This document shows, in pieces, positions 8,680 to 26,266 of a DNA stretch of 64,000 nucleotides; within the stretch, counting starts at the first letter, position 1; each line of letters begins with the position of its first letter. The notes below the pieces were generated by a model. That model was not told where the DNA came from and ran no database searches. It saw only the letters and a list, made by a program, of their open reading frames with translations. The stretch comes from a virus (Duplodnaviria > Heunggongvirae > Uroviricota > Caudoviricetes). The position numbers were made by a program, and so were the translations under genes. Where the stretch lies: IMG/VR virus record IMGVR_UViG_3300033153_011579; one strand, 5' to 3'.

Positions 8680-8683
8680 TGAG

Positions 8684-9086: not shown

Positions 9087-9091
9087 ACTCA

Positions 9092-9380: not shown

Positions 9381-9382
9381 AG

Positions 9383-9634: not shown

Positions 9635-9666
9635 GAGAACTGACAATTCCCTTACACGAGGAGGAG
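9630..9666 (+). repeat. T1 element copy 18 (divergent right arm, TTACACG)
   Basis: TGTAAGAGAACTGACAATTCCCTTACACGAGGAGGAG. Confidence 0.8.
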
Positions 9667-9669
9667 AGG

Positions 9670-9945: not shown

Positions 9946-9975
9946 GAGAACCGACTGACTCTATTACACGAGGAG
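9941..9975 (+). repeat. T1 element copy 19 (divergent)
   Basis: TGTAAGAGAACCGACTGACTCTATTACACGAGGAG. Confidence 0.75.
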
Positions 9976-9982
9976 ATAATAG

Positions 9983-10465: not shown

Positions 10466-10494
10466 GAGAACCTTCTATTCCCTGACATGGAGGA
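10461..10494 (+). repeat. T1 element copy 20
   Basis: TGTAAGAGAACCTTCTATTCCCTGACATGGAGGA. Confidence 0.8.
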
Positions 10495-10499
10495 TTGAG

Positions 10500-10733
10500 A
10501 TGAAAACGGGAGAACGCGAACTGTTCAAGGTAACCGGACGACCTGGTCGCCGTATCTGGCGCAAACAAGCCGGAGCGCGAGGGTACCGACCCATCTGGAC
10601 CTCCGACTACGTTGAGGAGGTTGACGGGAAGTTCTTCTGCACGATTCGGAGTGAGTCCGAGAACGACCTGCCGATGGAGCAGCACGATAACCTTCAAGAC
10701 GCGCTCGAGTGGTTGATGAGGGATCGGACGTAA
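10500..10733 (+). CDS. Hypothetical protein (77 aa)
   Basis: ORF track; TAA in T1 copy 21. Confidence 0.6.
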   Translation: MKTGERELFKVTGRPGRRIWRKQAGARGYRPIWTSDYVEEVDGKFFCTIRSESENDLPMEQHDNLQDALEWLMRDRT

Positions 10734-10762
10734 GAGAATCAACGATTCTCTGACATGGAGGA
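10731..10762 (+). repeat. T1 element copy 21
   Basis: TAAGAGAATCAACGATTCTCTGACATGGAGGA. Confidence 0.9.
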
Positions 10763-10766
10763 CAGG

Positions 10767-10961
10767 ATGAAACGCACGCTGTTGACCGAGATCGACTTTG
10801 ACCGTCAGAGCTGTCGGGTCATCGAGGCGGAGATCATCAAGTGCAACACCTGTAAGGGTAGCGGTTGGAAAGAGGTTTCGACGCACCGCGGAAACTACAG
10901 ACGCCGCTGTGCTCAGTGCCACGGCACAGGCAAGGTGCTGGTGGGACCGAAGGTTCGATGA
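10767..10961 (+). CDS. DnaJ-type zinc-finger-like protein (64 aa)
   Basis: Two CxxCxGxG motifs: CNTCKGSG and CAQCHGTG. Confidence 0.6.
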   Translation: MKRTLLTEIDFDRQSCRVIEAEIIKCNTCKGSGWKEVSTHRGNYRRRCAQCHGTGKVLVGPKVR

Positions 10962-10962
10962 C

Positions 10963-10996
10963 TGTAAGAGAACAGACGATTCTCTGACACGAGGAG
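10963..10996 (+). repeat. T1 element copy 22
   Basis: TGTAAGAGAACAGACGATTCTCTGACACGAGGAG. Confidence 0.9.
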
Positions 10997-11002
10997 AGAA
11001 GG

Positions 11003-11254
11003 ATGAATTTCAGTAACGAGCAAATGACAGAGTGGCTGTCGGAGGTTCCGGAAGCTACCAGCGTACGCTGCGTGGCTATCCCTCCGTACATCAGTAAAGA
11101 GATGAAGGAGCGGCCAGTGATTCCGTGGGATCTGCTTACCCGAGAAGTCAACAACAAGATAGGTGATGGTGACCGCGTACTCGGGATTCGTGCTGCGGGG
11201 GCCAACTCCTACGGCAATTACTGGATCATCATTTGGGTTGGCAACAAAGAGTGA
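11003..11254 (+). CDS. Hypothetical protein (83 aa)
   Basis: ORF track; ATG after T1 copy 22 SD. Confidence 0.6.
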   Translation: MNFSNEQMTEWLSEVPEATSVRCVAIPPYISKEMKERPVIPWDLLTREVNNKIGDGDRVLGIRAAGANSYGNYWIIIWVGNKE

Positions 11255-11257
11255 GCT

Positions 11258-11290
11258 TGTAAGAGAAACTAATATTCTCTGACGGAGGAG
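11258..11290 (+). repeat. T1 element copy 23
   Basis: TGTAAGAGAAACTAATATTCTCTGACGGAGGAG; preceded by shared TGAGCT. Confidence 0.85.
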
Positions 11291-11293
11291 AGC

Positions 11294-11527
11294 ATGGACA
11301 ACGATACCAAAAGACTGTGTGGCAACTGCTTCTGGTTTGATCAAGAGCTCTGTCGACGACTGCCACCGCGCATGATTGACCAGGTAGATCTTTATGAAAA
11401 AGATAGTGAGTTCAACACCTGGAATGCCAGTTACGCAGACGACTACACCTCTTGGCCAGTTGTAGAAGAGAAAGCCTGGTGCGGAGAATGGCGATCGAAG
11501 GAAGACGGCTGGCCCGTCGGTAAGTAA
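11294..11527 (+). CDS. Cys-rich hypothetical protein (77 aa)
   Basis: CGNCFWFDQELCRRLPP...WCGEW; TAA in T1 copy 24. Confidence 0.6.
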   Translation: MDNDTKRLCGNCFWFDQELCRRLPPRMIDQVDLYEKDSEFNTWNASYADDYTSWPVVEEKAWCGEWRSKEDGWPVGK

Positions 11528-11556
11528 GAGAATCAAACATTCTCTGACACGAGGAG
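11525..11556 (+). repeat. T1 element copy 24
   Basis: TAAGAGAATCAAACATTCTCTGACACGAGGAG. Confidence 0.9.
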
Positions 11557-11559
11557 AAG

Positions 11560-11673
11560 ATGATGGAAATTCTAATTTTTTGGCTGTGCTTTTGTGGACT
11601 CGGAGCCGTTGGTATATTGGTAGCGTCCTTGGTGATCCTCAGTGAGGAACGTCAACGAAACGGTCGCCAGTAA
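11560..11673 (+). CDS. Small hydrophobic peptide (37 aa; below ORF-track cutoff)
   Basis: MMEILIFWLCFCGLGAVGILVASLVILSEERQRNGRQ*; exactly bounded by T1 copies 24 and 25. Confidence 0.4.
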   Translation: MMEILIFWLCFCGLGAVGILVASLVILSEERQRNGRQ

Positions 11674-11701
11674 GAGAATCAGCACGTTCCCTGAAAGGAA
11701 G
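11671..11701 (+). repeat. T1/T2 hybrid element (copy 25)
   Basis: TAAGAGAATCAGCACGTTCCCTGAAAGGAAG: T1 left half joined to the ACGTTCCCTGAAAGGA tail seen in T2 copy e. Confidence 0.8.
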
Positions 11702-11714
11702 ATTGGAGAACAAA

Positions 11715-11927
11715 ATGTCGAAGAACACGGTCACGCAGCACGTTTTGGTTGATTCCCATGTTGAGTGCTTCCCTGAGGAATTCCTCGAAGCACTTCTCGC
11801 AGTTTGTCCGGCTCCCTTGGCACCGGACAGTCTTAAACAACTCCGTGACATAGGGAGAGTCCAGTTGAGCCTCTGGCTTTCCCCGGAGGACTTGAAGCGC
11901 TGGACAGGTAAAGCGCCAGGGGAATGA
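11715..11927 (+). CDS. Hypothetical protein (70 aa)
   Basis: MSKNTVTQHVLVDSHVECFPEEF...; stop TGA lies in T2 copy b. Confidence 0.5.
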   Translation: MSKNTVTQHVLVDSHVECFPEEFLEALLAVCPAPLAPDSLKQLRDIGRVQLSLWLSPEDLKRWTGKAPGE

Positions 11928-11938
11928 CACTTTCCCTG
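11919..11938 (+). repeat. T2 hairpin copy b
   Basis: GGGGAATGACACTTTCCCTG; TGA = stop of upstream ORF. Confidence 0.8.
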
Positions 11939-11976
11939 TGCCTACACAACAACCGCCTAGTGGGGCAAGGAGTAGG

Positions 11977-12330
11977 ATGATGACAGAGCATACATTGACC
12001 GTTGGTGGAAGCGAGGTCGTGGTTTCGAGTAACCCTGTTTCAAGGGACCTTGTCGGCTCGGACCGCAGCTTCGGAGATGAACGCGCGCACCCATGTCCGA
12101 ACTGTAGCAAAAATAGTCTGCGCTACCATTTCCTCGACTACAGGCCTGCGCTGTCGTGGGCCTGCGTCGAGTGTGGCTATGCTGAGCACCCGCCGATTGA
12201 AAAGTTGGTTGCCGATGGGTACTCCCCGCAGAAGGTAGAGGAGGATTGGTCGACCTGCATTTACCCAAAGGAGTGGATGCTTTACTCCCCGCTTGAGCGG
12301 TTAGCGTCACCACAAACACGAAAGGATTAG
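11977..12330 (+). CDS. Zinc-ribbon protein (117 aa; track start 11938 is GTG)
   Basis: HPCPNCSKNS...WACVECGYAEHP; AAGGAG 6 nt before ATGATG. Confidence 0.5.
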   Translation: MMTEHTLTVGGSEVVVSSNPVSRDLVGSDRSFGDERAHPCPNCSKNSLRYHFLDYRPALSWACVECGYAEHPPIEKLVADGYSPQKVEEDWSTCIYPKEWMLYSPLERLASPQTRKD

Positions 12331-12334
12331 AACG

Positions 12335-12685
12335 ATGGGTTTGTTTTCACCACCAGGCCAAGCTCCAGATCTCCGAGAGGCGAAAGATGTTAGAGTTATC
12401 GTCACCCTATGCAAGGACGAAGAACCAGGTGATGGATATGTCCGAACACAGATAACCGCTCTCGATGAACTCGAGGAGGGTGAAGAGGGTTTAAATATTA
12501 ACGGAGACAACGTCTTTGAGGCACTGGTTTACGCGCTGTACCACCACTTTGTAAACGAGCACGAGGTTGGGCATTCTTGTTGCCTTACTCATTTTATCGA
12601 AGAGATCACAGACCTACTGGAGCGTGTCAACGAGACTGACGGAAACGAAAAGGTCAGTCGGAGTTCTGAAGAACACACACATTAA
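12335..12685 (+). CDS. Hypothetical protein (116 aa), AT-richer
   Basis: ORF track; visibly lower GC than array average. Confidence 0.55.
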   Translation: MGLFSPPGQAPDLREAKDVRVIVTLCKDEEPGDGYVRTQITALDELEEGEEGLNINGDNVFEALVYALYHHFVNEHEVGHSCCLTHFIEEITDLLERVNETDGNEKVSRSSEEHTH

Positions 12686-12727
12686 TAAGGGTTATTGCAT
12701 CAGCTGCGGACCGTCGACCCTGTATGA

Positions 12728-12746
12728 GGAATGACACGTTCCCTGG
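12728..12746 (+). repeat. T2 hairpin copy c (in non-coding gap)
   Basis: GGAATGACACGTTCCCTGG. Confidence 0.8.
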
Positions 12747-12793
12747 TGGGAGAACGTCGAACTGGAGTGAGAGGAGTTTGAATGTTTAAAGCA

Positions 12794-12944
12794 CGTCGAG
12801 TTCTCCGAGCGCGCGGTGAGTGTGGACGGGGGCCTGCGTTGGGTTTTTGTGACGAATTCTCCTTAGCAGGCCTTCTACGTGGAGTGCTTCAACCATTCCA
12901 TCGACCTACTCGACCCACTCACCGCGCGCTCGGAGAACTCGACG
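12794..12944. repeat. 29-bp perfect inverted repeat flanking a 93-nt spacer
   Basis: 12794-12822 CGTCGAGTTCTCCGAGCGCGCGGTGAGTG is the exact reverse complement of 12916-12944; nested GGCCTGC/GCAGGCC pair in the spacer. Confidence 0.9.
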
Positions 12945-12971
12945 GCACGCAGTCGGGGGAAGGAGAAAAGA

Positions 12972-13181
12972 ATGCGAAAATATCGATTTCAGCACGATGA
13001 GGATGGTGACGTGCTGTGGGTCTACATCGCCGGTAACTCCGCGTACCCAGGGGAGCACCGCTTCGATCCACCAGAAGTTTTGGAGGCCTACATCGGTTAC
13101 CTTCGAGCATGTAAAGGTGATCAACTTGATTCTGATGTAGTTATCGCCTGGAAGGACAGTGCTTGGGGTCCGGATGTCTGA
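12972..13181 (+). CDS. Hypothetical protein (69 aa)
   Basis: MRKYRFQHDEDGDVLWVYIAG...; GGAAGGAGAAAAGA upstream; stop abuts T2 copy d. Confidence 0.5.
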   Translation: MRKYRFQHDEDGDVLWVYIAGNSAYPGEHRFDPPEVLEAYIGYLRACKGDQLDSDVVIAWKDSAWGPDV

Positions 13182-13196
13182 TGACACGTTCCCTGG
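13179..13196 (+). repeat. T2 copy d (left arm missing)
   Basis: TGATGACACGTTCCCTGG. Confidence 0.65.
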
Positions 13197-13232
13197 TACC
13201 CCTATGCCCAAACACTAGGCAGGAGGAATGAG

Positions 13233-13412
13233 ATGTCTGAAAAGAAAGCTGTGGTTCAACGTGTTGTCATCCACGAACTCTTGGATGCAGGTGTGGTGGC
13301 GATCGAAGGACGTGATCTTGTGTTCGAGTCCCCCTGGGACAAGGGCTCAGAGGCGATGATTGCTTTGATGAAGAAAGGCCTCGTCAAAGACGTGGTCCGG
13401 GACAGGGAATGA
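13233..13412 (+). CDS. Hypothetical protein (59 aa; below ORF-track cutoff)
   Basis: MSEKKAVVQRVVIHELLDAGVVAIEGRDLVFESPWDKGSEAMIALMKKGLVKDVVRDRE*; AGGAGGAATGAG upstream; TGA in T2 copy e. Confidence 0.45.
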   Translation: MSEKKAVVQRVVIHELLDAGVVAIEGRDLVFESPWDKGSEAMIALMKKGLVKDVVRDRE

Positions 13413-13423
13413 CACGTCCCCTG
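13405..13423 (+). repeat. T2 hairpin copy e
   Basis: GGGAATGACACGTCCCCTG followed by AAAGGAG SD and ATG 13438. Confidence 0.8.
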
Positions 13424-13437
13424 AAAGGAGAAGCCCG

Positions 13438-13713
13438 ATGGGTCAAACAACATCCGACAATCCAGGTGGAGTGAAGTCGCTCTTCGAAGATAACAACTCA
13501 CAAAAAGCTACTGCCTCCACGCTCGCCGGATACCTCGTCGAAGATGGTGCTTGGATGGTATTGCCAGATGGGGACCGCGAGATCACTATTGTGCGGCACA
13601 GAGACTATGGCACGATCATGTATCTCATTGATGGTCCAGGCGAGGATATAAGAAGCGGCGTAGTAAAAACGGTGCGAGAACTCGCTGACGCCATCGCCGT
13701 TGGTGGGGAATGA
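13438..13713 (+). CDS. Hypothetical protein (91 aa)
   Basis: ORF track; stop TGA in T2 copy f. Confidence 0.55.
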   Translation: MGQTTSDNPGGVKSLFEDNNSQKATASTLAGYLVEDGAWMVLPDGDREITIVRHRDYGTIMYLIDGPGEDIRSGVVKTVRELADAIAVGGE

Positions 13714-13726
13714 CACGTTCCCTAGG
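13705..13726 (+). repeat. T2 hairpin copy f
   Basis: GGGGAATGACACGTTCCCTAGG, 10 nt before T1 copy 26. Confidence 0.85.
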
Positions 13727-13736
13727 AACTTGAGCT

Positions 13737-13770
13737 TGTAAGAGAATCTCGCATTCTCTGACACGGAGGA
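13737..13770 (+). repeat. T1 element copy 26
   Basis: TGTAAGAGAATCTCGCATTCTCTGACACGGAGGA; preceded by shared TGAGCT. Confidence 0.95.
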
Positions 13771-13774
13771 AAAA

Positions 13775-13954
13775 ATGGACGAACACATGAGATATTTAGG
13801 CTGCCTGAAACTACTTGAGGATTGCTCACCTTACGTACCGGAAGAGATTCGTGAGGGTATCGAGATGGCTCACGACGATGCTGTAGAGGCCAGCAACGGG
13901 ACCTTGCGGGCTCGCAGTGTGCTCGATCGACGAGAGATCGAGGTGGTGACGTAA
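13775..13954 (+). CDS. Hypothetical protein (59 aa; below ORF-track cutoff)
   Basis: MDEHMRYLGCLKLLEDCSPYVPEEIREGIEMAHDDAVEASNGTLRARSVLDRREIEVVT*; bounded by T1 copies 26 and 27. Confidence 0.5.
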   Translation: MDEHMRYLGCLKLLEDCSPYVPEEIREGIEMAHDDAVEASNGTLRARSVLDRREIEVVT

Positions 13955-13984
13955 GAGAATCCGCACGTTCTCTTACACGGAGGA
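13952..13984 (+). repeat. T1 element copy 27
   Basis: TAAGAGAATCCGCACGTTCTCTTACACGGAGGA. Confidence 0.85.
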
Positions 13985-13985
13985 A

Positions 13986-14189
13986 ATGATGGGTAAAGAT
14001 GTGAGGACCAAGACATTCGCTATGATGTTTCGGGAGCGCTGCGTGATCATGCGGGATGCTTTCGACCGCCGTGACGTAGAGGGCTTTGCTACTGCTCTCA
14101 AGGACGTTGAGCGCCTGATGCGAGAGCACGCCGAGGGGTGCGGCTGCTCACAATGCCGAGAGACGCTGAAGATCATGAATGAGGTGTAA
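13986..14189 (+). CDS. Hypothetical protein (67 aa)
   Basis: ORF track; ...HAEGCGCSQCRETLK; TAA in T1 copy 28. Confidence 0.55.
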   Translation: MMGKDVRTKTFAMMFRERCVIMRDAFDRRDVEGFATALKDVERLMREHAEGCGCSQCRETLKIMNEV

Positions 14190-14219
14190 GAGAATACACA
14201 CGTCCTTTAACACGGAGGA
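14185..14219 (+). repeat. T1 element copy 28 (degenerate right arm)
   Basis: TGTAAGAGAATACACACGTCCTTTAACACGGAGGA. Confidence 0.75.
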
Positions 14220-14223
14220 AACG

Positions 14224-14460
14224 ATGAGTACTGTTCTGGATAATGACCAAAAATTGATGGTAATTCTGGCGGTTGTGGTGGCACTCTTCCTGTTAATTTT
14301 GGCTGGTGGGAAGCTTATTGGTGATGTTTTGTCACCCCCAACACCCCAAGAGGACTGTATGAACCAGGCCCAGCAGCTGGACAGCGAGGAGTCTGAGAAA
14401 GAAGCCTACTACAAGTGTCTTGAGTCTTTAGGGCTGGAAGATCCTAAAAAGGCTTTGTAA
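14224..14460 (+). CDS. N-terminally anchored small protein (78 aa)
   Basis: MSTVLDNDQKLMVILAVVVALFLLILAGGKLIG...; TAA in T1 copy 29. Confidence 0.55.
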   Translation: MSTVLDNDQKLMVILAVVVALFLLILAGGKLIGDVLSPPTPQEDCMNQAQQLDSEESEKEAYYKCLESLGLEDPKKAL

Positions 14461-14490
14461 GAGAATCTTCCGTTCTCTGACACGGAGAAG
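14456..14490 (+). repeat. T1 element copy 29 (last)
   Basis: TGTAAGAGAATCTTCCGTTCTCTGACACGGAGAAG. Confidence 0.9.
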
Positions 14491-14492
14491 AA

Positions 14493-15164
14493 GTGAAGCT
14501 GAGAAAACCACCAATCCTCTGCTCGATCTGCGGAGACCCAATCGTCACGAAGTGGCGAGACAAGCGAAGGCAGACCTGCGGGTCTCCCGAGTGCCGGGTG
14601 GCGATCCTGCTCGAGCCGCACCTGGGCGACCGGACTCGACCGTACGCCGGCGGAGCTCGCGGGAAGTGGAAAAAAAGCACCAAGCGCGGGTCGGTGGTGC
14701 GCGACCTCGCGAAGTGGGGTATTGGGCTTTCCGAGGAGATCTCCACGAACCTCGCCGACGCGGCCGACCAGGTCTTTAAGAGAACCAAAACCGCGAAGGC
14801 GGTCGGGACGAAGAAGGACGAGCGCGGTGCGGACCACCCGGAGGCCCAGGCTCAGATCTGGGGCTTCCTCGCTCGTAGGAGCGCGCTCATAAAAGTCGTC
14901 AGCAAGGACGACGGCGAGCCCGGGTTGCTCATTCTCAAAACCAAAAGCGAGAGTGTCCCGCACGCCATCCGCCGTCTCCTGAGCATCACCCCGGTCTCCG
15001 AGAACCTGTGCGATGTCTTCATGGCGTGGAGCTGTCCTTGCCCTCAGGACTCTCGAGTGATTTACGAAACGATCGACGACCTGCCCAAGACGGTAGGCTA
15101 TCACGACCCGTGCCCGCGTTGCGGTGCGGCACCACTGGAGGTGAAAAATGTTCCTAAAAAATAG
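14493..15164 (+). CDS. Hypothetical protein with terminal zinc-ribbon motifs (223 aa, GTG start)
   Basis: LCSICGDP...TCGSPECR at N-terminus; CPCPQ...HDPCPRCG at C-terminus. Confidence 0.6.
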   Translation: MKLRKPPILCSICGDPIVTKWRDKRRQTCGSPECRVAILLEPHLGDRTRPYAGGARGKWKKSTKRGSVVRDLAKWGIGLSEEISTNLADAADQVFKRTKTAKAVGTKKDERGADHPEAQAQIWGFLARRSALIKVVSKDDGEPGLLILKTKSESVPHAIRRLLSITPVSENLCDVFMAWSCPCPQDSRVIYETIDDLPKTVGYHDPCPRCGAAPLEVKNVPKK

Positions 15165-15528
15165 CGTGTTCCTTCCCGGGCGAGGCTGGCTACTCGTGAA
15201 GCCACCGGAGTCGGAAGCCGACACAGGAGAGGTCTACACTGTCGACGTGATCGAGCTCGCCGCCGAGGAGAAGTCCGCGTGCCCGCAGTTCCAGGAGGAG
15301 ACAGCGATACGCGGTGCTGGCGGCGCTCCGATGATGACCGTGGACATCGTGCTCCCGAAGCGCTGCTACGTCGGTGACCGGTGGAGCGTACTAAAGGACA
15401 GAGACGCAGTGCGCGAGGTACCCGACCTGGACGGTGCCCTGCTCAAGACCGAGGAGGTGATCGGCTGGGAGTGGGAGGACGACCGTCTCAAGCCGCCTCC
15501 TGGCGTCGTAGAGGACCTGGACTCCTGA
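15148..15528 (+). CDS. Hypothetical protein (126 aa)
   Basis: GGAGGTG upstream of ATG; 17-nt overlap with upstream gene. Confidence 0.55.
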   Translation: MFLKNSVFLPGRGWLLVKPPESEADTGEVYTVDVIELAAEEKSACPQFQEETAIRGAGGAPMMTVDIVLPKRCYVGDRWSVLKDRDAVREVPDLDGALLKTEEVIGWEWEDDRLKPPPGVVEDLDS

Positions 15529-16487
15529 TGCCGACCAGAGCACACATCCAGGCGTTGGCCAACGCGAGAGAGGCTCTCGAGCCGTTCAGCCGGTGGCTCG
15601 TCCGCGGGTGCGGGAAGACCGATGGAGAGGCCGACTTCATCATCAGCTTCGTGTGTCGCGCGCTGTGGACTTCCACCGCCGACGACGACGAGGATCCCGA
15701 CCCGCTCGATTGCCTCTCCGAGCCGATGATCACCCGGCCGACATTCAACAAGCTGAAATCGGCCATCCGGCAGTATTACACCTGGCACCTCGTCCGGCAG
15801 TCGTCGCCACCGAGTGAGAAAGAGCGGGCGAGGCGGCAGCTCAGGCGGCTCGAATCCATCTTGCCGTACGGCGGCGTCGGGAGACGAGCCAAACGGGTCG
15901 CGATCGATGCGCTGTCGCAGGCGGATTTAAAAAAGCTCATGGACGGACTGAAAAAATGGCACGCGGAACAAGGACGGCGATGGCCCTGGAGCTACCCGGT
16001 GATCAGCATGTGCCTGAAGATCTCGCCGGCGATCAGAAACTGTCTGGTCTACCTCTCTCGTGAGGAGCTCGTCCTCGCTCTCGCCGACGGGGTGAACAGC
16101 GGGTCGTTCAACCTGTGGGTCCGCCAGAAGAACGTGCCGGTCATGAGGTCGATCCCCATCGGGCTCGTCTGGAAAGAGGCGGACATGCTCGTCGGCTGGC
16201 CCTGGCAATGGGAGACGCTCCAGGACATTATCTCGTCGTCCAACGCGAGCACCCAGAACTCGGTGAACAAGATCAAAGAGATCTCTTTCAAGTACTATCG
16301 CCACGTCCTGGGAGACATCGGCGACCCGAAGACGTTCTTAGCTCGACTTCGGTATGCCACCTGGGTCTGGCTCTTGAAAAAGACGAAAGGCGACTGGCTC
16401 TCCGTCGCGCAGATCGTCGGGAAGTCGGTAAAGATCCTCAGAAGACGGCCGGAGCTGCTCGAGGTCGTGTCGAGGAGGCTGAACTAG
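15528..16487 (+). CDS. Recombinase-like protein with degenerate catalytic motifs (319 aa)
   Basis: TGATG coupling; ARLRYATWVWLLKKTKGDWLSVAQIVGKSVKIL resembles the HxLRH...GH box II but lacks His/His/Tyr. Confidence 0.4.
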   Translation: MPTRAHIQALANAREALEPFSRWLVRGCGKTDGEADFIISFVCRALWTSTADDDEDPDPLDCLSEPMITRPTFNKLKSAIRQYYTWHLVRQSSPPSEKERARRQLRRLESILPYGGVGRRAKRVAIDALSQADLKKLMDGLKKWHAEQGRRWPWSYPVISMCLKISPAIRNCLVYLSREELVLALADGVNSGSFNLWVRQKNVPVMRSIPIGLVWKEADMLVGWPWQWETLQDIISSSNASTQNSVNKIKEISFKYYRHVLGDIGDPKTFLARLRYATWVWLLKKTKGDWLSVAQIVGKSVKILRRRPELLEVVSRRLN

Positions 16488-17173
16488 TCCGATACGCAGC
16501 GAGTGTACTGAGACTCGGTCTTGAGAGACCCCCACACATAGGCCTCGGAGAACAGGACGCCCCAGGCGTACGCCGGGTTGTTCCCGGGCGAGCTCGACCA
16601 GTGGTACGACCAGCACGGACCGACAAGGTCATCCCCCCAGTAGCACCCGTCCGACCCGGGGCCTTCCAATTCGGCGCACGGATCGCAGTCGGGACCCTCC
16701 GCGCACGGATTCGTCAGGCAGTCGGGGTCGGTCACCCCGCAGTCTACCGACGCGCAGCCGACGATGATTCCCGACAGCTCCTGGATCAGCGGGAGTCGCC
16801 AGTCGTCGCCGAGGGCCTCGCAGTAGTCGACCGCGTCGACCCAGAGCATGAGCTCGGTGCTCGGCGGGTTCTCCCAGCAGAGGTCGCCGTCTAGCCAGCA
16901 GGTGGCCGTGTCGGTATCGGTGTCGGTATCGGTGTCGGTGTCGGTATCGATCACTGTTTCCGTATTGGTTTCGGTATCTTGCGTGTCTGTGTCGATCACG
17001 GTGTCCGTGTCGGTGTCCGTATCGGTCTCGGTGTCGGTGTCACCGTCGGTGTCCGTGTCCGTGTCGGTGTCCGAATCGACGTCCGTGTCGGTGTCGCCGG
17101 CGTCCGGCTCCATGAACGGAGCCTCGGTATCGCCGCAGGCCATCACAATTGCGAATATCCAAATATATCTCAT
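16484..17173 (-). CDS. Lipoprotein with (Thr-Asp)n repeats and DUF1566 (Lcl C-terminal-like) domain
   Basis: MRYIWIFAIVMACGD lipobox; DTDTDTD tracts; DDWRLPLIQELSGI...YHWSSSP...YAWGVLF...YTRCVSD. Confidence 0.7.
   Translation of the reverse strand: MRYIWIFAIVMACGDTEAPFMEPDAGDTDTDVDSDTDTDTDTDGDTDTETDTDTDTDTVIDTDTQDTETNTETVIDTDTDTDTDTDTDTATCWLDGDLCWENPPSTELMLWVDAVDYCEALGDDWRLPLIQELSGIIVGCASVDCGVTDPDCLTNPCAEGPDCDPCAELEGPGSDGCYWGDDLVGPCWSYHWSSSPGNNPAYAWGVLFSEAYVWGSLKTESQYTRCVSD
16908..17096 (-). repeat. Hexanucleotide-type tandem repeat (GTGTCG/GTATCG) encoding TD/TE/VD repeats
   Basis: gtgtcggtatcggtgtcggtatcggtgtcggtgtcggtatcg... inside 16484..17173. Confidence 0.9.
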
Positions 17174-17174
17174 C

Positions 17175-17420
17175 CTACATCTCCTCCCCATGCTGCAGAG
17201 CTCTCAGGGCCTCCCCGAGGTCCATGAACTCCTCGACCAGGCTGACGTCACCGTCCTCGCCGCCGGGTGCCCAAAGGTCGTACGTCCGGCTCGTCTTGTC
17301 GAATATCACGAAGTCGTCCGGCTCGACCGCCTCGAACACGCCGTCCTTGACGACCCCGGTCACCCGGTACTTCCGGCCTCTCTCGTGAGGATCGCTACTG
17401 AACCAAAATCCAATTTTCAT
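17175..17420 (-). CDS. Hypothetical protein (81 aa), co-transcribed with the lipoprotein
   Basis: ORF track; AGGAG upstream; stop 1 nt from the lipoprotein ATG. Confidence 0.6.
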   Translation of the reverse strand: MKIGFWFSSDPHERGRKYRVTGVVKDGVFEAVEPDDFVIFDKTSRTYDLWAPGGEDGDVSLVEEFMDLGEALRALQHGEEM

Positions 17421-17596
17421 CTCAAACTCCTATGCTCACGGGCTCGAGGGAGAGACAGGCCCCCCGGAGAACGACGACCGAGGCGAAGGCAGAAAGCCGC
17501 TGGTCAGACGGCAACCCCGACCGCTTTACAGGCGACCCGTCACTCCATCCAACCCGTGAGGTACTTCGTACATGTGTGATTTTGCGCTTCGGCATC

Positions 17597-18598
17597 CTAA
17601 AAAGGCGTCTTCCGCTCTGCTGCAGCCCTGATCATACCGTCTATCTCGCTCTTCAGCCACTCTCGCTCTCGCTCGGTCGGCTCCCGCCCCTTCACGCGGC
17701 CCGTGAACCACCCCAAATCGGCCTCCCAGTCGTACTCGTCGGCGAACACCCGGACCACCTGCAGCATCCGGTCTTTTACGTGCGCTCGAGTCAACCTCCC
17801 GCGGGAGATCGGCGCAGGCTTCTCCAGCGTCGCCATCAGCCCGCTAGCGGGTATGTATTCCTCGGACTCGTCCGGCTCGTCCTCTGAGGCCTCGTCGGGC
17901 TCGAGAGGCTCAGAATCGCCCTGAGGGGCGCTAGCGCCCTCTTTACATTGTTCACTAACACTGGAATCGGCGTTGACCGCGTTGATCAGGACAACGTGAT
18001 CGTCCAGCTTGTGCCAGAACGCTTGGACGAGTCCAGAGCACATCGCCTCGTCGAGCTTCTCGTCGTCCTCTTGCAGGCCGGACATCATGACCCGCCGAGT
18101 GTCAGGGTAGGTCGCCTCGATCTCACTCAGCAGACCGAGACCAGACATCCCAGGCATCTCGAAGTCGGTGATGACCACGTCGAACGTCCCGAGCTTGTTG
18201 ATGAGCATGATCGCCTGACTCGCCGAGCTCGCCTGGGTCGTCTCCCAGTCTTTGGGGAGAAGCCGGCAGACCGTCCGCCGCATGATGTCCTCGTCGTCGA
18301 CCACGAGGATGCGCAGGCGTCTCTTCGACGTCCTGGCTTCCGGAGGGTTGGTCCAGGCCCGGCACTCGCGAGCGAGGTTGACGTTCCCAACGCGCTCGGA
18401 GGTCGCGTAGACCGTCTCGATCACGGACTGCCAGAGGCCGCTGCAGGACTCGGGAGGTCCCCAGATCTCCTTCGGCCCAGCTCCCTCGATGGAGCTCAGC
18501 AGCCGGCCCTTGATCGTCGGGTCGAACAGCCCCTCTTTGAGAAACTGCATCGCGACCTCGCGAAGCTCGGGGTCCAGTGGTCGTCTAGATTTTGTCAT
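17597..18598 (-). CDS. Response-regulator receiver (REC) domain protein with unknown flanking domains (333 aa)
   Basis: RILVVDDEDIMRR...FDVVITDFEMPGMSGLGLL...RRVMMSG...FWHKL = DD / phospho-Asp / S / K of the CheY fold. Confidence 0.8.
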   Translation of the reverse strand: MTKSRRPLDPELREVAMQFLKEGLFDPTIKGRLLSSIEGAGPKEIWGPPESCSGLWQSVIETVYATSERVGNVNLARECRAWTNPPEARTSKRRLRILVVDDEDIMRRTVCRLLPKDWETTQASSASQAIMLINKLGTFDVVITDFEMPGMSGLGLLSEIEATYPDTRRVMMSGLQEDDEKLDEAMCSGLVQAFWHKLDDHVVLINAVNADSSVSEQCKEGASAPQGDSEPLEPDEASEDEPDESEEYIPASGLMATLEKPAPISRGRLTRAHVKDRMLQVVRVFADEYDWEADLGWFTGRVKGREPTEREREWLKSEIDGMIRAAAERKTPF

Positions 18599-18630
18599 TT
18601 CCGCTCTCTTTCTGCCGGAACCACCCGGCT
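18596..18630 (-). repeat. T3 leader copy a (hairpin + purine-rich SD)
   Basis: Minus strand AGCCGGGTGGTTCCGGCAGAAAGAGAGCGGAAATG ending at the response-regulator ATG. Confidence 0.85.
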
Positions 18631-18633
18631 GAT

Positions 18634-18861
18634 TTAGTCGCGCTCGACCGTGACGTCTTCCGCGTCGTAGGTGTGACCGAGGTCTTCCATCTCCATCCCG
18701 ACCTGCTTCTTGAGCTCCTCGTCGCTATCGCTTTGGGTCTGCGACAGGTTCTCGAACGACTCGAGGGCGAGCTGGCCGTCGTCGAGATCGTAACGGACTA
18801 CCCAGCCGCTGTAGTCGTCGGCTTCACCGTCCCAAAGTACTCTGATGTTGCTTGCGATCAT
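18634..18861 (-). CDS. Hypothetical acidic protein (75 aa)
   Basis: MIASNIRVLWDGEADDYSGWVV...; preceded by T3 copy b. Confidence 0.6.
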   Translation of the reverse strand: MIASNIRVLWDGEADDYSGWVVRYDLDDGQLALESFENLSQTQSDSDEELKKQVGMEMEDLGHTYDAEDVTVERD

Positions 18862-18894
18862 CTTCCGCTCTCTCTCTGCCGGCGACCAGCCGGC
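18859..18894 (-). repeat. T3 leader copy b (stem changed, structure kept)
   Basis: Minus strand GCCGGCTGGTCGCCGGCAGAGAGAGAGCGGAAGATG. Confidence 0.8.
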
Positions 18895-18903
18895 GGTTAT
18901 TCG

Positions 18904-19215
18904 TCAGCTTAAAACCGGCCAGAGCTGGACGTCGAAGATCTCCTCTTGCGTCCTCTGGATGTCTGTGAGGATCTGGTCCTGCTTCGCGAGCGCGGCGTAT
19001 GACTCCTCGTCGCCCTCGGCCTTGTCGGCATCTTCGAACCACGCGCGCCAGTTCTGGTTCGGGGCATCGCCCCACTCGCAGTCGATCGTGATGTCAGGAT
19101 ACAGTCGCGCGATCTCTTCGCCGACTGCCTTGCAGAACCTGTGCATCGACTTCTGGACGTCCATCCCGTCCATGTCGCCCATCGCGTGCTCGTCGATTCT
19201 GATGTGTGCGATCAT
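18904..19215 (-). CDS. Hypothetical protein (103 aa)
   Basis: MIAHIRIDEHAMGDMDGMD...; the track ORF extension to 19242 is the translated T3 leader. Confidence 0.6.
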   Translation of the reverse strand: MIAHIRIDEHAMGDMDGMDVQKSMHRFCKAVGEEIARLYPDITIDCEWGDAPNQNWRAWFEDADKAEGDEESYAALAKQDQILTDIQRTQEEIFDVQLWPVLS

Positions 19216-19248
19216 TTTCCGCTCTCTTTCTGCCGGAACCACCCGGCT
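19213..19248 (-). repeat. T3 leader copy c
   Basis: Minus strand AGCCGGGTGGTTCCGGCAGAAAGAGAGCGGAAAATG; upstream stop TAG overlaps the hairpin base. Confidence 0.85.
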
Positions 19249-19420
19249 AGTTGTCTTTAGATGCCTTGTTTATATGCGGGTACCACTTCTGCTGCCGAGT
19301 CCACATCTCTAAAACCTCGTCGGATGGTTCCCCGTATATGTCCAAGGAACAATCATTGCACTCGCCTTGCGGACCATATGGCTCTGTCAAACACCCACAC
19401 TCTGGACAACAGTTTTTCAT
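19247..19420 (-). CDS. Small Cys-rich protein (57 aa; below ORF-track cutoff)
   Basis: MKNCCPECGCLTEPYGPQGECNDCSLDIYGEPSDEVLEMWTRQQKWYPHINKASKDN*; preceded by T3 copy d. Confidence 0.45.
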   Translation of the reverse strand: MKNCCPECGCLTEPYGPQGECNDCSLDIYGEPSDEVLEMWTRQQKWYPHINKASKDN

Positions 19421-19455
19421 TTTTCCGCTCTCTTTCTGGCCGGAACCACCCGGCT
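19418..19455 (-). repeat. T3 leader copy d
   Basis: Minus strand AGCCGGGTGGTTCCGGCCAGAAAGAGAGCGGAAAAATG. Confidence 0.85.
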
Positions 19456-19524
19456 CACCAATTTAGACCCTGCACCCTGCTACATATTCACCACATTCGT
19501 AAGTGGTTGATTTTTCTCACCTTA

Positions 19525-19854
19525 TTAGCTCTTGGCCCGAGGATTCCGGACCTTGGGTTTCCGACCCTGCCGGACGGCTGTCATCCAGGCCTCGAGCTCG
19601 GCGACGAGGGCCTTGCTCTCGCGCAAGGTGTCTCGCTTCATCGGGTTCCCGCGGCTATCCTCTTCCGGGATCCACCGGCCGTACTTGTCCCTGCTGAACA
19701 CGAACCAGAGAGGCCCCCAGTTGAGCGACCTGGACTTCTTCTCGTCGGTCGCCGGCACGTACCCCGATTTTTCGATCTTCCAGTCTGCCGACGGGCAGCC
19801 GATGGACGTGTACTGACCGGCCGCCTTCCTCTTCCATTTGCATGAGTTTTCCAT
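19525..19854 (-). CDS. Hypothetical basic protein (109 aa)
   Basis: ORF track. Confidence 0.55.
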   Translation of the reverse strand: MENSCKWKRKAAGQYTSIGCPSADWKIEKSGYVPATDEKKSRSLNWGPLWFVFSRDKYGRWIPEEDSRGNPMKRDTLRESKALVAELEAWMTAVRQGRKPKVRNPRAKS

Positions 19855-19860
19855 GTCTCT

Positions 19861-20076
19861 TTATACCCTCACTGTGGGGTTGGGTTCCAGTCCAATCATC
19901 GACCGGACGTTCGCCGAAGACCCGAGACGGTCGGCCCAGATCTCCGCAGCGTGGTAGTCGCCGCTCGCGTAGGCAATCTGAAACTGTTTGACCGCTTCCT
20001 CGACCAGGGTGTTGGCCAGCTCGACCGCTTCCTCGTCGTTCTTGGGCTCTATCATCATCGCTTCTTCAAAGGTCAT
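19861..20076 (-). CDS. Hypothetical protein (71 aa)
   Basis: ORF track; AGGAGAA upstream. Confidence 0.5.
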   Translation of the reverse strand: MTFEEAMMIEPKNDEEAVELANTLVEEAVKQFQIAYASGDYHAAEIWADRLGSSANVRSMIGLEPNPTVRV

Positions 20077-20124
20077 CGTTTTCTCCTGGTTGCCGTGCCT
20101 ACCCTGCTGATGCTCTCGACCGCC

Positions 20125-20526
20125 CTAATGTGACAGCCACTCCAACATTTCATCGAATTTTTTTGCCTCGCCGACCCTTGCGACGCCGTCCATATCGTCG
20201 GTGAACAGCCCGTATTTTCCGGTCTTCGGCGACCACATCGCATACCTGTATCCCCCACCGCGGCTGTCGTAGGTCTCGGTCACCACGGACCAGTGGAACC
20301 GTCGGATGCTGTACTCGATCCGACCGTCATCGAAGTGCTTGGCCAAGATGGCTCTGCCGTGCGGGAGATCGACATCTGGTTTCGACTCTCGAGCCTGAAG
20401 GCGGGTCCTGGACGACCCGTCCTTCTTCTTCTTCCACGAGCTGATGCATCCGGCCATCCTCTCTCTATGGGTCTTTCTGGTCTTCCTGCGCTTCATGCCC
20501 CAGAGGCAATGCAAGCCCGGTGCCAA
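20125..20526 (-). CDS. Hypothetical protein (up to 133 aa; likely start MKRRK at 20496)
   Basis: ORF track. Confidence 0.5.
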   Translation of the reverse strand: MAPGLHCLWGMKRRKTRKTHRERMAGCISSWKKKKDGSSRTRLQARESKPDVDLPHGRAILAKHFDDGRIEYSIRRFHWSVVTETYDSRGGGYRYAMWSPKTGKYGLFTDDMDGVARVGEAKKFDEMLEWLSH

Positions 20527-20608
20527 CCAGAAAACTCAATGAAATTACGGGGCGGTCGGCCGGAGAGAGGGGCTGAGGTAAGATCTGTTACCGGGGAGGT
20601 GCGATCGG

Positions 20609-21295
20609 TTACATTCCGGCGATAAAAGCTGGCGGGCCAGCCCGCGCCACCAGGATCGGGCCGATCTTCGATCTCTCCCGCTTCACCTTCCGGGTCCTGA
20701 CCTTGGGGCCGAAGGCCGACGTCTTGCAATTCCCGGCCTGGTAGCAGGAGAGGGTCCCGACCAGGCTCCCGTCGCACTCTTCCTCCTGGCACCTCTTGAG
20801 CTCGTCGGTACCGGCCGAGAGCTGGCCCTCGGACGTCTTCATGTCGTAGCCCTTGGACAGAGCCTTTTTCAGAACCTGCCCGTGGACTTGCATCAGGCCT
20901 TGCTCTCCGTCTTTCCCATCTCGGATCTTTTCGTAAAAGCTCGATTCGTGGTCGACGACGACGGCCACCACGAGCGGGTCGACCCCGCGCTCGTCGGCAA
21001 TCCTGTCGATCATCGCCGCGAGCTTCGGAGCTCGCCGAGCTCTCTTCTGGTTGAGGGTGACCTCGATGCAGGCGTCTCGCCCTGGGCCTTCCTTCCGCTT
21101 CTTGCACGACGCGCTCAGAAAGCGCTTGATATAGTCCTCGACGTGGTCGGCTGTGACGAGTTTTTGGCCTCCCCAGACCGACGGCTCGTCACCAAGACCC
21201 TTCGACTCGGTCGGCCACGGGATCATCCAGATGACGATCACCACGAGGATGGCGATCAGTAAAAATAAAAAGAATCTGCCTCGCTTGTTCAGCAT
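20609..21295 (-). CDS. Lytic transglycosylase (SLT domain) with N-terminal signal-anchor
   Basis: FFLFLLIAILVVIVIWMIPW TM; VVDHESSFYEK...GEQGLMQVH = SLT ES...GLMQ motif. Confidence 0.8.
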   Translation of the reverse strand: MLNKRGRFFLFLLIAILVVIVIWMIPWPTESKGLGDEPSVWGGQKLVTADHVEDYIKRFLSASCKKRKEGPGRDACIEVTLNQKRARRAPKLAAMIDRIADERGVDPLVVAVVVDHESSFYEKIRDGKDGEQGLMQVHGQVLKKALSKGYDMKTSEGQLSAGTDELKRCQEEECDGSLVGTLSCYQAGNCKTSAFGPKVRTRKVKRERSKIGPILVARAGPPAFIAGM

Positions 21296-21319
21296 CCGGT
21301 CCTCCTGGGTTTGGGTTTA

Positions 21320-21333
21320 GGCCCCGCGGGGCC
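21320..21333 (-). other. GC palindrome / hairpin between two lysis-region genes
   Basis: GGCCCCGCGGGGCC is a perfect 14-bp palindrome; no U-tract. Confidence 0.3.
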
Positions 21334-21366
21334 CCGCTACAGATTGGATATTGGTAAGCTCGAGCA

Positions 21367-22041
21367 TCACTTTTTCTTCGGCTTGATCATGTTGGAATAA
21401 ACCCACTCGCCGACCTTGTATAGCACGTAGCCGAGGCTCAGGCCGAGAAGCAGATCGACCGGAGTGAGATCTCCGTCGAGGTCGACGTCCTTCAGACTCG
21501 GGTCGATGTCGACGACCACCTTCTTGTTAGTCCACCTGATCCCAGAATCCTGTTTGTCGGTCAGGAAGTAGTGCGTCTTGAAAAAATAGCCGGACTCCCT
21601 CGCGGTCTTGTTGGTGGCGAAGTTGACAAACTGCTGGCCGAGCTCCTGCTTGAGGCCGCCCTCGGCGAACATCGTCGCGTACATCCTCGCCGACATCGGT
21701 ATCTGGTCCCAGGTCCAGCCCTGGATCTCCTTGCGTCTCGCGATCCGGGCGGGGGTGCAGTGGTCCGGGTTGGCCTTGCACTTCGCTCCGTTCGGATTGA
21801 GCCAGGCCGGGTTCGTCGGCTGTGAGAATTTCCTGATCAGGCTCTTGAACGACCGCCACTTGTTGCCCCACCGGAAGAACCGCAGGAACATCGTCCACGC
21901 GAGCGCAGAGGCCTCAGCACGACCGAGGTGCTTGCCGTACCCGCCCTCGCCGGCCAGCGCCTTCGCAAGCCACAGGACGTCGTCGTCGGTCAGCGTGTAC
22001 GACTTCGAATTATCCTCGTACCGGTAGACTGCTCGAGCCAT
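21367..22041 (-). CDS. Possible cell-wall hydrolase-like protein with C-terminal TM (224 aa)
   Basis: DDDVLWLAKALAGEGGYGK...EASALAWTMFLRF loosely resembles the SleB/CwlJ (Hydrolase_2) N-terminal motif; C-terminal LLLGLSLGYVLYKVGEWVY. Confidence 0.4.
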   Translation of the reverse strand: MARAVYRYEDNSKSYTLTDDDVLWLAKALAGEGGYGKHLGRAEASALAWTMFLRFFRWGNKWRSFKSLIRKFSQPTNPAWLNPNGAKCKANPDHCTPARIARRKEIQGWTWDQIPMSARMYATMFAEGGLKQELGQQFVNFATNKTARESGYFFKTHYFLTDKQDSGIRWTNKKVVVDIDPSLKDVDLDGDLTPVDLLLGLSLGYVLYKVGEWVYSNMIKPKKK

Positions 22042-22192
22042 TTGCTACCTCAAATAGCGGACTGGTCCGCCCACCATGGTCTGAACCCTGGACATTCCAG
22101 GGACGGGTGCTCGTCTCGATGGAGCGCGCAGTTGCCACAAAGGTCTTTCACGATGAAGCTGAGGATCCGCGTGAGGTGGTGGTCGTCCACGA

Positions 22193-22555
22193 CTACTTCC
22201 CCCCGAGGATCCGCTCGATGAACTTCGAGTACGTGGCGGTCTCCTCGCCACCGACCTTCTTGCCGACCATCTTGCCGCCTTTGAAGGCCGCGACGAACGG
22301 AATCGACGTGACCTTGAGCTCGTCCGCCAGGGCGGAGTCCTGCTCGACGTCGACCTCGAGGAACTCCGCGTCATCACGATGCGGACACGCCGCCTTCTGC
22401 AGCTTCGGCCCGGCCTCGATGCAGCTCCCGCAGTTCGGACTGTGGAACTTCACGACCACGGGCTTCTTCGAAGATCGGATCTGCTCCCTTGCCGAGGCCG
22501 AGTTCGACCTCTTCAGAGGCATACAAAATCCCTGGAACTCTTGGTTTAGAGCCAT
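22193..22555 (-). CDS. Thioredoxin-fold protein
   Basis: VVVKFHSPNCGSCIEAGPKL (CxxC) and SIPFVAAFKGGK (cis-Pro loop region). Confidence 0.8.
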   Translation of the reverse strand: MALNQEFQGFCMPLKRSNSASAREQIRSSKKPVVVKFHSPNCGSCIEAGPKLQKAACPHRDDAEFLEVDVEQDSALADELKVTSIPFVAAFKGGKMVGKKVGGEETATYSKFIERILGGK

Positions 22556-26062: not shown

Positions 26063-26266
26063 TCAATCCTCCCTCGTATATTTGTCTAAGAGCGCCTGCT
26101 GCTCCTTGGTGAGTTCTTCTCCGATCTGGGTCAGCATGACGACGTGCCAGAACTCGCACATCTCCCGCTGGGCGTCGTCGCACATTATTTGGAACTCGTC
26201 GGTGATCGTCTCGCCTTCTTCGAGCGGCGGCGCTTTGATCTCGACGGTCCAGGTGATCTCAGTCAC
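26063..26266 (-). CDS. Hypothetical protein (67 aa)
   Basis: ORF track. Confidence 0.5.
   Translation of the reverse strand: MTEITWTVEIKAPPLEEGETITDEFQIMCDDAQREMCEFWHVVMLTQIGEELTKEQQALLDKYTRED

Follow-up and report, generated by a model that had tools for sequence, protein, structure and literature searches.

Four consecutive genes of a tailed phage are each preceded by a repeated, start-associated hairpin and purine-tract element

We analysed a 64,000-nt stretch of DNA from an uncultured tailed phage (IMG/VR record IMGVR_UViG_3300033153_011579; Caudoviricetes), hereafter the window, in which four consecutive minus-strand genes, designated a to d, are each preceded by a copy of a ~35-nt element designated T3. 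Each copy consists of a 6-bp GC hairpin, a purine tract of 15 to 18 nt and the ATG of the gene. The four copies, designated like the genes they precede, are located at 18596-18630 (a), 18859-18895 (b), 19213-19248 (c) and 19418-19455 (d), all on the minus strand, which was read directly. Copy a, 5' of a gene with a receiver domain, has the sequence AGCCGGGTGGTTCCGGCAGAAAGAGAGCGGAA-ATG, or in parts A-GCCGGGTGGTTCCGGC-AGAAAGAGAGCGGAA-ATG. Copy c is the sequence of copy a with one additional A, and copy d, which precedes a Cys-rich open reading frame (ORF) of 57 codons, is copy a with one C inserted after the hairpin and two additional A. Copy b has the sequence CGCCGGCTGGTCGCCGGCAGAGAGAGAGCGGAAG-ATG, or in parts C-GCCGGCTGGTCGCCGGC-AGAGAGAGAGCGGAAG-ATG. 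The homology extends from 1 nt 5' of the hairpin through the ATG, and the flanks further upstream are unrelated. The coordinates of the hairpins, the tracts and the genes are given in Table 1.

An earlier note, made from the letters of this DNA, had reported a hairpin, a purine tract and an ATG in front of each of these four genes. This arrangement is genuine and non-random. The exact T3 32-mer occurs twice, compared with no occurrence in 100 shuffles, and the core AGAGAGCGGAA occurs exactly four times, every time within this region. A repeat finder placed the four copies in one family (D12). A profile hidden Markov model (HMM) built from them found just these four in the window with E ≤ 6e-9, the next match having E = 1.9. 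A covariance model was set aside because the gap placed in copy b by MAFFT clashes with the helix; the profile HMM and regular expressions were used instead. One stretch at the 3' end of gene a (GCAGAGCGGAAGA, 17606-17618) was considered as a further, degenerate copy but scored at noise level (E = 40) and was rejected.

The earlier note had also proposed a search of the full genome for further copies. When this was run, no fifth copy was found in two contigs of the same phage recovered from other samples, which extend the window by 5.4 kb on its left (L015) and by 9.8 kb on its right (L014). The total is therefore four copies in the ~79 kb scanned of the ~82-kb phage genome, whose source contig has 82,351 bp. 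An independent contig of 2.4 kb (L006, Joint Genome Institute (JGI) sample 3300033149) has all four copies in identical form, so that they are not an assembly artefact. L006 is collinear with the window and differs from it by two single-nucleotide polymorphisms (SNPs), both outside the T3 leaders; it is the same phage and adds no variation of T3.

The spacing of T3 is set relative to the start codon. Between the 3' end of the hairpin and the ATG there are 15, 16, 16 and 18 nt. The hairpin follows the upstream stop codon at -1 nt in copy c, where the two overlap, at 4 nt in copy a, at 9 nt in copy b and at 70 nt in copy d. Because the distance to the ATG is nearly constant and the distance to the stop varies, T3 belongs to the start codon and not to the stop codon. 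The conserved block stops 0 to 2 nt short of the ATG in all four copies, and all four are on the coding strand. The former description of a stop codon that abuts or overlaps the hairpin base is thus right for copy c, roughly right for copies a and b, and wrong for copy d. The label of a "stop-hairpin-SD adaptor", SD being the Shine-Dalgarno sequence, does not suit an element that varies by 0 to 2 nt relative to the start and by -1 to 70 nt relative to the stop.

Over 33 nt, copies a and c show 100% identity, and copy d differs from them by its one inserted C. Copies b and c are alike at 22 of 24 nt past the ATG (ATGATCGCA..ACATCAGA), so that their repeat runs ~25 nt, or ~8 codons, into the coding sequence (CDS). 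Both proteins begin with MIA because the T3 repeat continues past the ATG in both. Genes b and c were rejected as paralogues, with a BLASTP E value of 4.9 and only the first ~8 codons in common. The repeat shared by b and c into the CDS shows that the T3 cassette spread as DNA, by duplication or recombination. Copy c is also a mosaic, with a hairpin of the a/d type and a downstream part of the b type. The module-specific regulation suggested by the earlier note is a conjecture; recent local duplication explains much of the T3 conservation, since four near-identical copies lie in 860 bp.

The hairpin was part of the minimum free energy (MFE) fold in all four contexts. Copies a, c and d have a predicted hairpin of -9.3 kcal/mol, in which five G-C pairs and a G·U pair close a UGGU tetraloop, and copy b has one of -11.5 kcal/mol with six Watson-Crick pairs and a UGGUC loop. 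The antisense version of the former has 5 bp and -8.5 kcal/mol, compared with the six pairs, including the G·U, and the tetraloop of the sense strand. Copy b had been described as having a different stem. Its five G-C pairs are in fact identical; the apical sixth pair is changed from G·U to C-G and the loop has one extra base. Copy b differs from copies a and c at six positions, none of which falls within the ten bases of the five G-C pairs. By our own arithmetic, the chance that six changes spare these pairs is (25/35)^6, or ~0.13, and the pattern may be taken as weak support for an RNA helix. We infer that the hairpin would form in the RNA and matter there, with a role, and perhaps a trans-acting factor, of the kinds considered below.

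The 3' half of T3 is well supported as a ribosome-binding site (RBS). The sequence AGAAAGAGAG is a degenerate form of the ideal SD AGAAAGGAGG and has the spacing from the ATG that an SD requires. From -18 to +6, the T3 genes are predicted to be more open than 74-93% of the other genes, and this predicted accessibility is high because the tract is without pyrimidines. The predicted strength of pairing depends on the 3' tail of the 16S rRNA. Against a tail of the E. coli type (CACCUCCUUA), which may not be that of the host, the T3 tracts pair with -4.5 to -5.5 kcal/mol. A longer tail, CACCUCCUUUCU (in its shorter written form, ...CCUCCUUUCU), is common outside enterobacteria. Against this more favourable tail, which likewise may not be that of the host, the tracts reach -9.2 to -9.9 kcal/mol, compared with a window median of -9.5. 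They are average with the longer tail because AGAAAG is complementary to CUUUCU-3'. The six AGAAAG:CUUUCU pairs start right at the base of the T3 hairpin; if the host has the long tail, the SD:anti-SD helix would therefore start directly at the hairpin base. The "purine-rich SD" of the earlier note is accordingly weak with the one tail and average with the other.

The same phage has a second and much larger leader family, T1. It has the form GTAAGAGAAT-N6-ATTCTCTGACACGGAGG-ATG and occurs in ~29 copies, at 1136-14491 (+) of the window and at 6544-9993 of L015, where it precedes nearly every small early gene of the rightward block. T1 is unrelated to T3 in sequence, yet its geometry is that of T3: 15 nt (the mode) separate the hairpin end from the start codon in 12 of 25 copies. 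A geometry shared by two unrelated sequences suggests constraint and not accident. The T2 hairpin GGAATGACACGTTCCC has five copies in the window (5343, 11921, 12728, 13406 and 13707, all +), which overlap or follow stop codons; the distance to the next start is variable, and a T1 copy is sometimes next. T2 is stop-associated and is not a start-linked leader, so the three families of one adaptor that had been claimed come to two, T2 having a different architecture.

Outside the families, no general rule of a hairpin at -15 was found. For genes without a family leader the distances were scattered, and 5 of 32 fell at 15-18 nt compared with ~2.7 expected, which is not significant. No Rfam family matched at the gathering threshold in the whole window, and at E ≤ 10 the region 17300-19700 gave one unrelated snoRNA match, which is noise. 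A single leader at 40888-40925 (+), consisting of a GC hairpin (CGGUGGUCGUCGGGCCGCUG), then AGAGAGGAAGAGAAA (15 nt) and the ATG of the gene 40923-41207, is unique and has a design and geometry like those of T3, with a sequence that is not homologous to it.

The window has phage-type gene content, including an SLT transglycosylase, a PurZ/PurA-like enzyme, DUF5131 and GP88. Its genes are directed rightward from 1 to 16487 (small early genes), leftward from 36153 to 16484 and rightward again from 36466. Good sigma-70-like promoters were found only in the divergent region at ~36.2 kb and 5' of the early operon in L015, and there were no such sites in 16000-22500. Because the nearest good promoters lie ~17 kb upstream, at 36.2 kb, the T3 genes are probably read from a long polycistronic RNA. 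The phage encodes a protein of the sigma-70 family (L015 3433-4107; Pfam Sigma70_r2 and r4), ~2 to 1.3 kb left of the window start, and since it has its own sigma factor, late or internal promoters may escape a scan for the sigma-70 consensus. Most neighbours in the leftward operon overlap or nearly abut, whereas the T3 genes are 31-42 nt apart and each has its own leader. T3 itself was rejected as a sigma-70 promoter, there being no consensus near the cluster. It was also rejected as an intrinsic terminator on either strand, since the hairpin is followed 3' by the purine tract AGAAAGAGAG instead of a U-tract; a terminator scan flagged the opposite strand only, in two of the four copies, with poor, weak T tails.

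Two further observations concern the promoter regions. A fourth shared leader type, (T)CCGCGGCGAGAGGARACACC(C)ATGA, occurs at 36154-36206 (-) of the window and at ~4235-4299 (+) of L015, where it heads the first genes of the leftward and the early rightward operons and is preceded by sigma-70-like promoters (TTGACA-N17-CTAGAT and TTGACC-N17-TATGAT). At ~4115-4195 of L015, just 5' of the early promoter, there are five or six TTTCCCGTG / CACGGGAAA motifs in both orientations, which look like an operator array.

All four T3 genes are ORFans. The domain of gene a is of the CheY-like receiver type, and no recognisable domain was found in its N- and C-terminal parts in searches of Pfam, NCBIfam and PDB; the idea of an output domain that binds RNA or DNA was rejected, as these searches gave the receiver domain only. 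The best NCBIfam matches of this domain are the receivers of Myxococcus EspA/EspC, which may be a weak hint at the host. An AlphaFold model from the single sequence was unusable, with a predicted local distance difference test (pLDDT) score of 37.6. Genes a and c had no homologues except themselves, the only database relatives of gene c being itself and a variant with one changed residue on L006. The small acidic proteins b and c, whose isoelectric points (pI) are given in Table 1 and which have no homologues, recall DNA-mimic or anti-defence proteins, which is speculation only. The G+C content at third codon positions (GC3) is 0.57 in gene d, compared with ~0.8 in neighbouring genes.

The T3 copies argue for two changes of annotation. 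The JGI call for the receiver gene starts at 18550, behind GAGG, and gives 317 aa; the ATG linked to T3 is in frame 48 nt earlier and gives 333 aa, and the gene probably starts at 18598 and not at the called 18550. The second change concerns the 57-aa zinc-ribbon-like ORF, which JGI did not call in L006 and which is probably a real gene.

Table 1. Positions in the window of the T3 hairpins, the T3 tracts with their start codons, and the four genes behind them.
Feature	Position	Strand	Description
Gene a	17597-18598	-	333 aa; CheY-like receiver domain, residues ~92-205 (Pfam PF00072)
Copy a, purine tract and ATG	18596-18613	-	AGAAAGAGAGCGGAA (15 nt) and ATG of the receiver-domain gene
Copy a, hairpin	18614-18629	-	GCCGGG-UGGU-UCCGGC; five G-C pairs and G·U, tetraloop
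Gene b	18634-18861	-	75 aa; starts MIA; very acidic (pI 4.1); ORFan
Copy b, purine tract and ATG	18859-18877	-	AGAGAGAGAGCGGAAG (16 nt) and ATG; repeat like that of copy c runs on into the CDS
Copy b, hairpin	18878-18894	-	GCCGGC-UGGUC-GCCGGC; six Watson-Crick pairs, pentaloop
Gene c	18904-19215	-	103 aa; starts MIA; acidic (pI 4.3); ORFan
Copy c, purine tract and ATG	19213-19231	-	AGAAAGAGAGCGGAAA (16 nt) and ATG
Copy c, hairpin	19232-19247	-	Same as copy a; the TAG stop of gene d ends on its first G
Gene d	19247-19420	-	57 aa; CPxC...CxxC, zinc-ribbon-like
Copy d, tract and ATG	19418-19438	-	CAGAAAGAGAGCGGAAAA (18 nt) and ATG
Copy d, hairpin	19439-19454	-	Same as copy a; 70 nt past the stop of gene 19525-19854; spacer 48% G+C

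Several other genes of this phage deserve mention. The product of 26259-27368 (-) is adenylosuccinate-synthetase-like; it matches a PHROG annotated as a PurZ-type enzyme (E = 1e-51) and is ~35% identical to PurA/PurZ-like genes of Rhizobium and Mycobacterium phages, and the phage may use 2-aminoadenine (a Z-genome). In the early region, 2746-3045 and 5953-6252 (both +) form a 300-nt direct repeat with 92% identity, a duplicated gene segment whose two copies end at a similar junction (...CACTGACACGGAG). The gene at 16484-17191 (-), which converges on the end of the rightward early block, encodes long Asp-Thr repeats (DTDT...) and a C-terminal Lcl_C domain (PF07603), and its product is probably secreted or surface-exposed. 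To the right of the window, 8172-11409 of L014 in the late region has two sulfotransferase-like genes and one methyltransferase-like gene, which may serve virion or host surface modification.

We tentatively favour the reading that T3 is a portable, duplicated initiation cassette that acts at the level of the mRNA, with the hairpin as a cistron boundary, a decay barrier or a docking or stacking element. It would be a start-associated element of translation initiation, copied locally before four unrelated small accessory genes at what would be the far end of a long leftward operon. The ribosome would land on the pyrimidine-poor AGAAAGAGAG, followed by 5-8 nt and the ATG, with extended SD pairing mainly to the CUUUCU-3' of the 16S tail. 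Each ORF behind T3 would then receive its own initiation, unlike most of the neighbours, which would be coupled by overlap. The GC hairpin abuts the tract and ends 15-18 nt before the ATG, which would place it just outside the mRNA channel of the 30S subunit and beside the 3' end of the 16S rRNA. It would mark the cistron boundary and could be a decay barrier or a protector of the 5' or 3' ends of the flanking cistrons; possibly it also governs the efficiency of the tract, as a docking site or a platform for stacking.

A number of observations weigh against this reading. Among the ~90 gene starts of the window, the T3 tracts are in the weakest 6-9% when paired with the E. coli-type tail, for which the median is -9.0 kcal/mol and which may not be that of the host. 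A role of the hairpin as a simple insulator of the RBS was rejected, since in silico disruption of the 5' arm left the predicted accessibility unreduced. In this genome of 60% G+C, about half of the gene upstream regions have some hairpin at least as stable as -5 kcal/mol. The T3 copies are not independent of one another; three of them are nearly identical, and their conservation may just mirror recency. Nor were relatives found in which conservation could be followed. The T3 20-mer had no match in viral_contigs or genome_contigs, and its five single matches in metagenome_contigs were without hairpin or ATG and at chance level. The T1 patterns gave nothing or single chance matches in viral_contigs and genome_contigs. 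Searches seeded with proteins of the locus yielded no relatives for covariation, a 681-aa late protein had only four distant relatives, all on short contigs, and there was no DNA match to cultured phages.

The pairing itself is a further point of this kind. The structure conservation that had been read from copy b comes down to one double change in one copy, so that RNA pairing of T3 is backed by a single compensatory event. We therefore turned the covariance check proposed by the earlier note to the larger T1 family, where 29 copies are available. Although 93% of the cells pair, no pair was changed on both sides and the covariation score was not above that of shuffles. Deviations to G·U (13) were no more frequent than structure-breaking deviations to A·C (10). 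The arms of T1 are conserved in sequence, and its 6-nt spacer is variable in sequence and constant in length. Arms conserved without covariation are what one would expect of a dyad DNA site and not of a selected RNA helix.

These results bear most directly on the alternative that T3 is a DNA operator, which we consider somewhat unlikely. The near-palindrome GCCGG-N6/7-CCGGC would be a dyad site for a dimeric protein of the phage or the host at each gene start, comparable to the stoperators of cluster A mycobacteriophages or to the 17-bp dyads of cluster O; binding would switch the cluster on or off, for example by roadblocking elongation, and the SD and ATG would merely have been co-duplicated. 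The T3 arms are conserved as sequence and no covariation demands RNA. T1 has the classic signature of an operator, in that its 7-bp arms are invariant, its 6-bp spacer varies, and compensatory changes and a G·U bias are both absent. Hatfull and co-workers concluded likewise for the inverted repeats of extended start-associated sequences (ESAS; PMC3203893) and for the dyad repeats of cluster O (PMC4351075). Moreover, two products of the cluster, a protein with a receiver domain and a zinc-ribbon-like peptide, have no known partners. What an operator fits less well is the detail of the copies. In copy b the half-site spacing is shifted by 1 bp and the sixth position flips with pairing kept, and in copies a, c and d the sixth position is G·U in the sense RNA and non-palindromic in the DNA. 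The G·U pair, which exists only in the sense RNA, the restored apical pair and the longer spacing of copy b thus favour RNA for T3. No DNA-binding domain was detectable in the four proteins of the cluster, and four operators within 860 bp with no promoter nearby would be unusual. On balance, T3 may act either as RNA or as DNA.

We think it unlikely that T3 is a passive scar, that is, an ancestral junction with a GC hairpin and an RBS that was reused as a recombination joint as more small genes were added by insertion or duplication, in the manner of the promoter-early stem-loops (PeSLs) of T4-type phages, for which there is precedent (PMC2839356). The hairpin would then be merely part of ~33 nt of identity. 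The near-identity of copies a, c and d, the repeat through ~8 codons of the otherwise unrelated b and c, and the mosaic copy c, which suggests exchange within the leader, are all as expected for such a joint. The four genes are ORFans, gene d is deviant in GC3, and it is not unusual for a gene of this genome to have a hairpin of such strength 5' of it. However, copy b has its six differences with the five G-C pairs untouched and the apical pair restored, the unrelated T1 has an equal distance from hairpin to ATG, and no variant genome with gain or loss of a gene at the T3 joints was found, L006 being collinear.

A common role of T3 and T1 can also be conceived, which we regard as improbable. 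Both would be docking sites at the 5' edge of the 30S footprint, against the position of the 16S 3' end, read by module-specific RNA-binding factors or stacking coaxially on the SD:anti-SD helix. They would switch whole gene sets, the early T1 genes and the T3 accessory cluster, on or off through translation or mRNA decay and apart from the very long operons that contain them. It is very improbable that T3 is a phage-specific promoter, read at or near the ATG by a phage-directed RNA polymerase holoenzyme so that each gene is a near-leaderless unit: the genome does encode a sigma factor, no sigma-70 consensus lies near the cluster and the GG-N10-GC of T3 (CGGCAG-N5-GAGCG) recalls a -24/-12 element, but the conserved block reaches the ATG and is unlike -35/-10 or extracytoplasmic function (ECF) motifs, the sigma-54-like reading was rejected because it would put the transcription start 4-5 nt past the ATG, gene b could not start elsewhere, its next Met being at codon ~56, gene a has no AAA+ sigma-54 activator domain, and the purine tract has the right spacing for an SD and is complementary to the tail of a 16S rRNA.

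Repeats tied to start codons recur in phages, as start-associated sequences (SAS) and ESAS, PeSLs and dyad repeats, and their mechanism was mostly never established. T3 alone is small, confined to one ORFan cluster of one phage lineage, and adds an example rather than an answer. The more useful observation is that one phage has two sequence-unrelated families, T1 (~29 copies) and T3 (four copies), in which a palindrome of 6-7 bp ends ~15 nt before the ATG. The pair would be a compact system for the question of RNA or DNA.

The early mRNAs of T7 and SP82 have intercistronic hairpins that are processed by RNase III, with an SD-like 5' stabiliser downstream. Like these, T3 is a hairpin between the cistrons of a long phage RNA with a purine-rich ribosome-binding stretch next to it. 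RNase III substrates need about two helical turns; T3 was rejected as such a site (~20-bp stem), its stem being 6 bp with no extension in the folded contexts. A nut site of the lambda type consists of a boxA and a boxB hairpin with a 5-6-bp GC stem and a small loop, and there is one per operon. The opposite strand of T3 reads CGCTCTCTTTC and then the hairpin, superficially like boxA-boxB. As a nut site T3 was rejected on account of its orientation, which would be antisense to the genes, and of its copy number (four in 860 bp); its loop is also not GNRA-like. It was also rejected as a target of an ANTAR protein, a response-regulator antiterminator, which needs an ANTAR output domain and two tandem hexaloop hairpins; gene a has a receiver only, and T3 has just one hairpin, its loop being a tetraloop or a pentaloop.

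Like T3, the stoperators of cluster A mycobacteriophages and the cluster O dyad repeats of 17 bp (PMC4351075) are short conserved sites in short intergenic gaps that often touch stops or starts; there are many of them. In cluster O the inverted repeats are of 7 bp around a short variable spacer (PMC4351075), a form also seen in T1 and T3. In contrast, stoperators are asymmetric 13-mers bound by a repressor, and the cluster O sites are not start-linked, one third of them lying inside genes (PMC4351075), whereas T3 is strictly start-linked and includes the SD and the ATG.

The PeSL cassettes (Arbiol et al. 2010, PMC2839356; Comeau et al. 2014, PMC4122927) share with T3 that they are small repeated stem-loops flanking ORFans in a plastic region, where repeat-mediated recombination shuffles genes. 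They consist of a strong sigma-70-like early promoter and a functional terminator, whereas T3 has no promoter consensus and no U-tract and is fused to an RBS and an ATG. As to gain and loss of genes, the T3 genes are ORFans and L006, with its two SNPs, is the only related sequence.

The closest likeness is to the SAS and ESAS of cluster K mycobacteriophages, start-associated repeats described in 2011 (PMC3203893), whose function was still unverified in 2025 (PMC12699233). The SAS consensus is the 13-bp GGGATAGGAGCCC with a canonical AGGAG core (PMC3203893, PMC12699233), and it occurs in 11-19 copies distributed through half of a genome, with conservation in many phages (PMC3203893). As with T3, these are short repeats in one orientation, within a few nt of the starts (mostly ATG) of non-structural genes of unrelated families, in the position of the RBS and conserved beyond what 16S pairing needs; some overlap the upstream stop, and in about half of the SAS copies an inverted repeat lies directly upstream. 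However, the AGAAAGAGAGCGGAAA of T3 has no resemblance to GGGATAGGAGCCC within two mismatches, and T3 has four copies in 860 bp of one phage. The arms of ESAS are 17 bp, imperfect and 4-13 bp apart, and were judged by the authors not to be RNA hairpins (PMC3203893), whereas the inverted repeat of T3 is perfect, with 5-6 bp of GC and a spacer of 4-6 nt. Among known systems T3 is closest to SAS/ESAS, and yet it is not a member of them, since it differs in sequence, in arm length and in the distribution of its copies.

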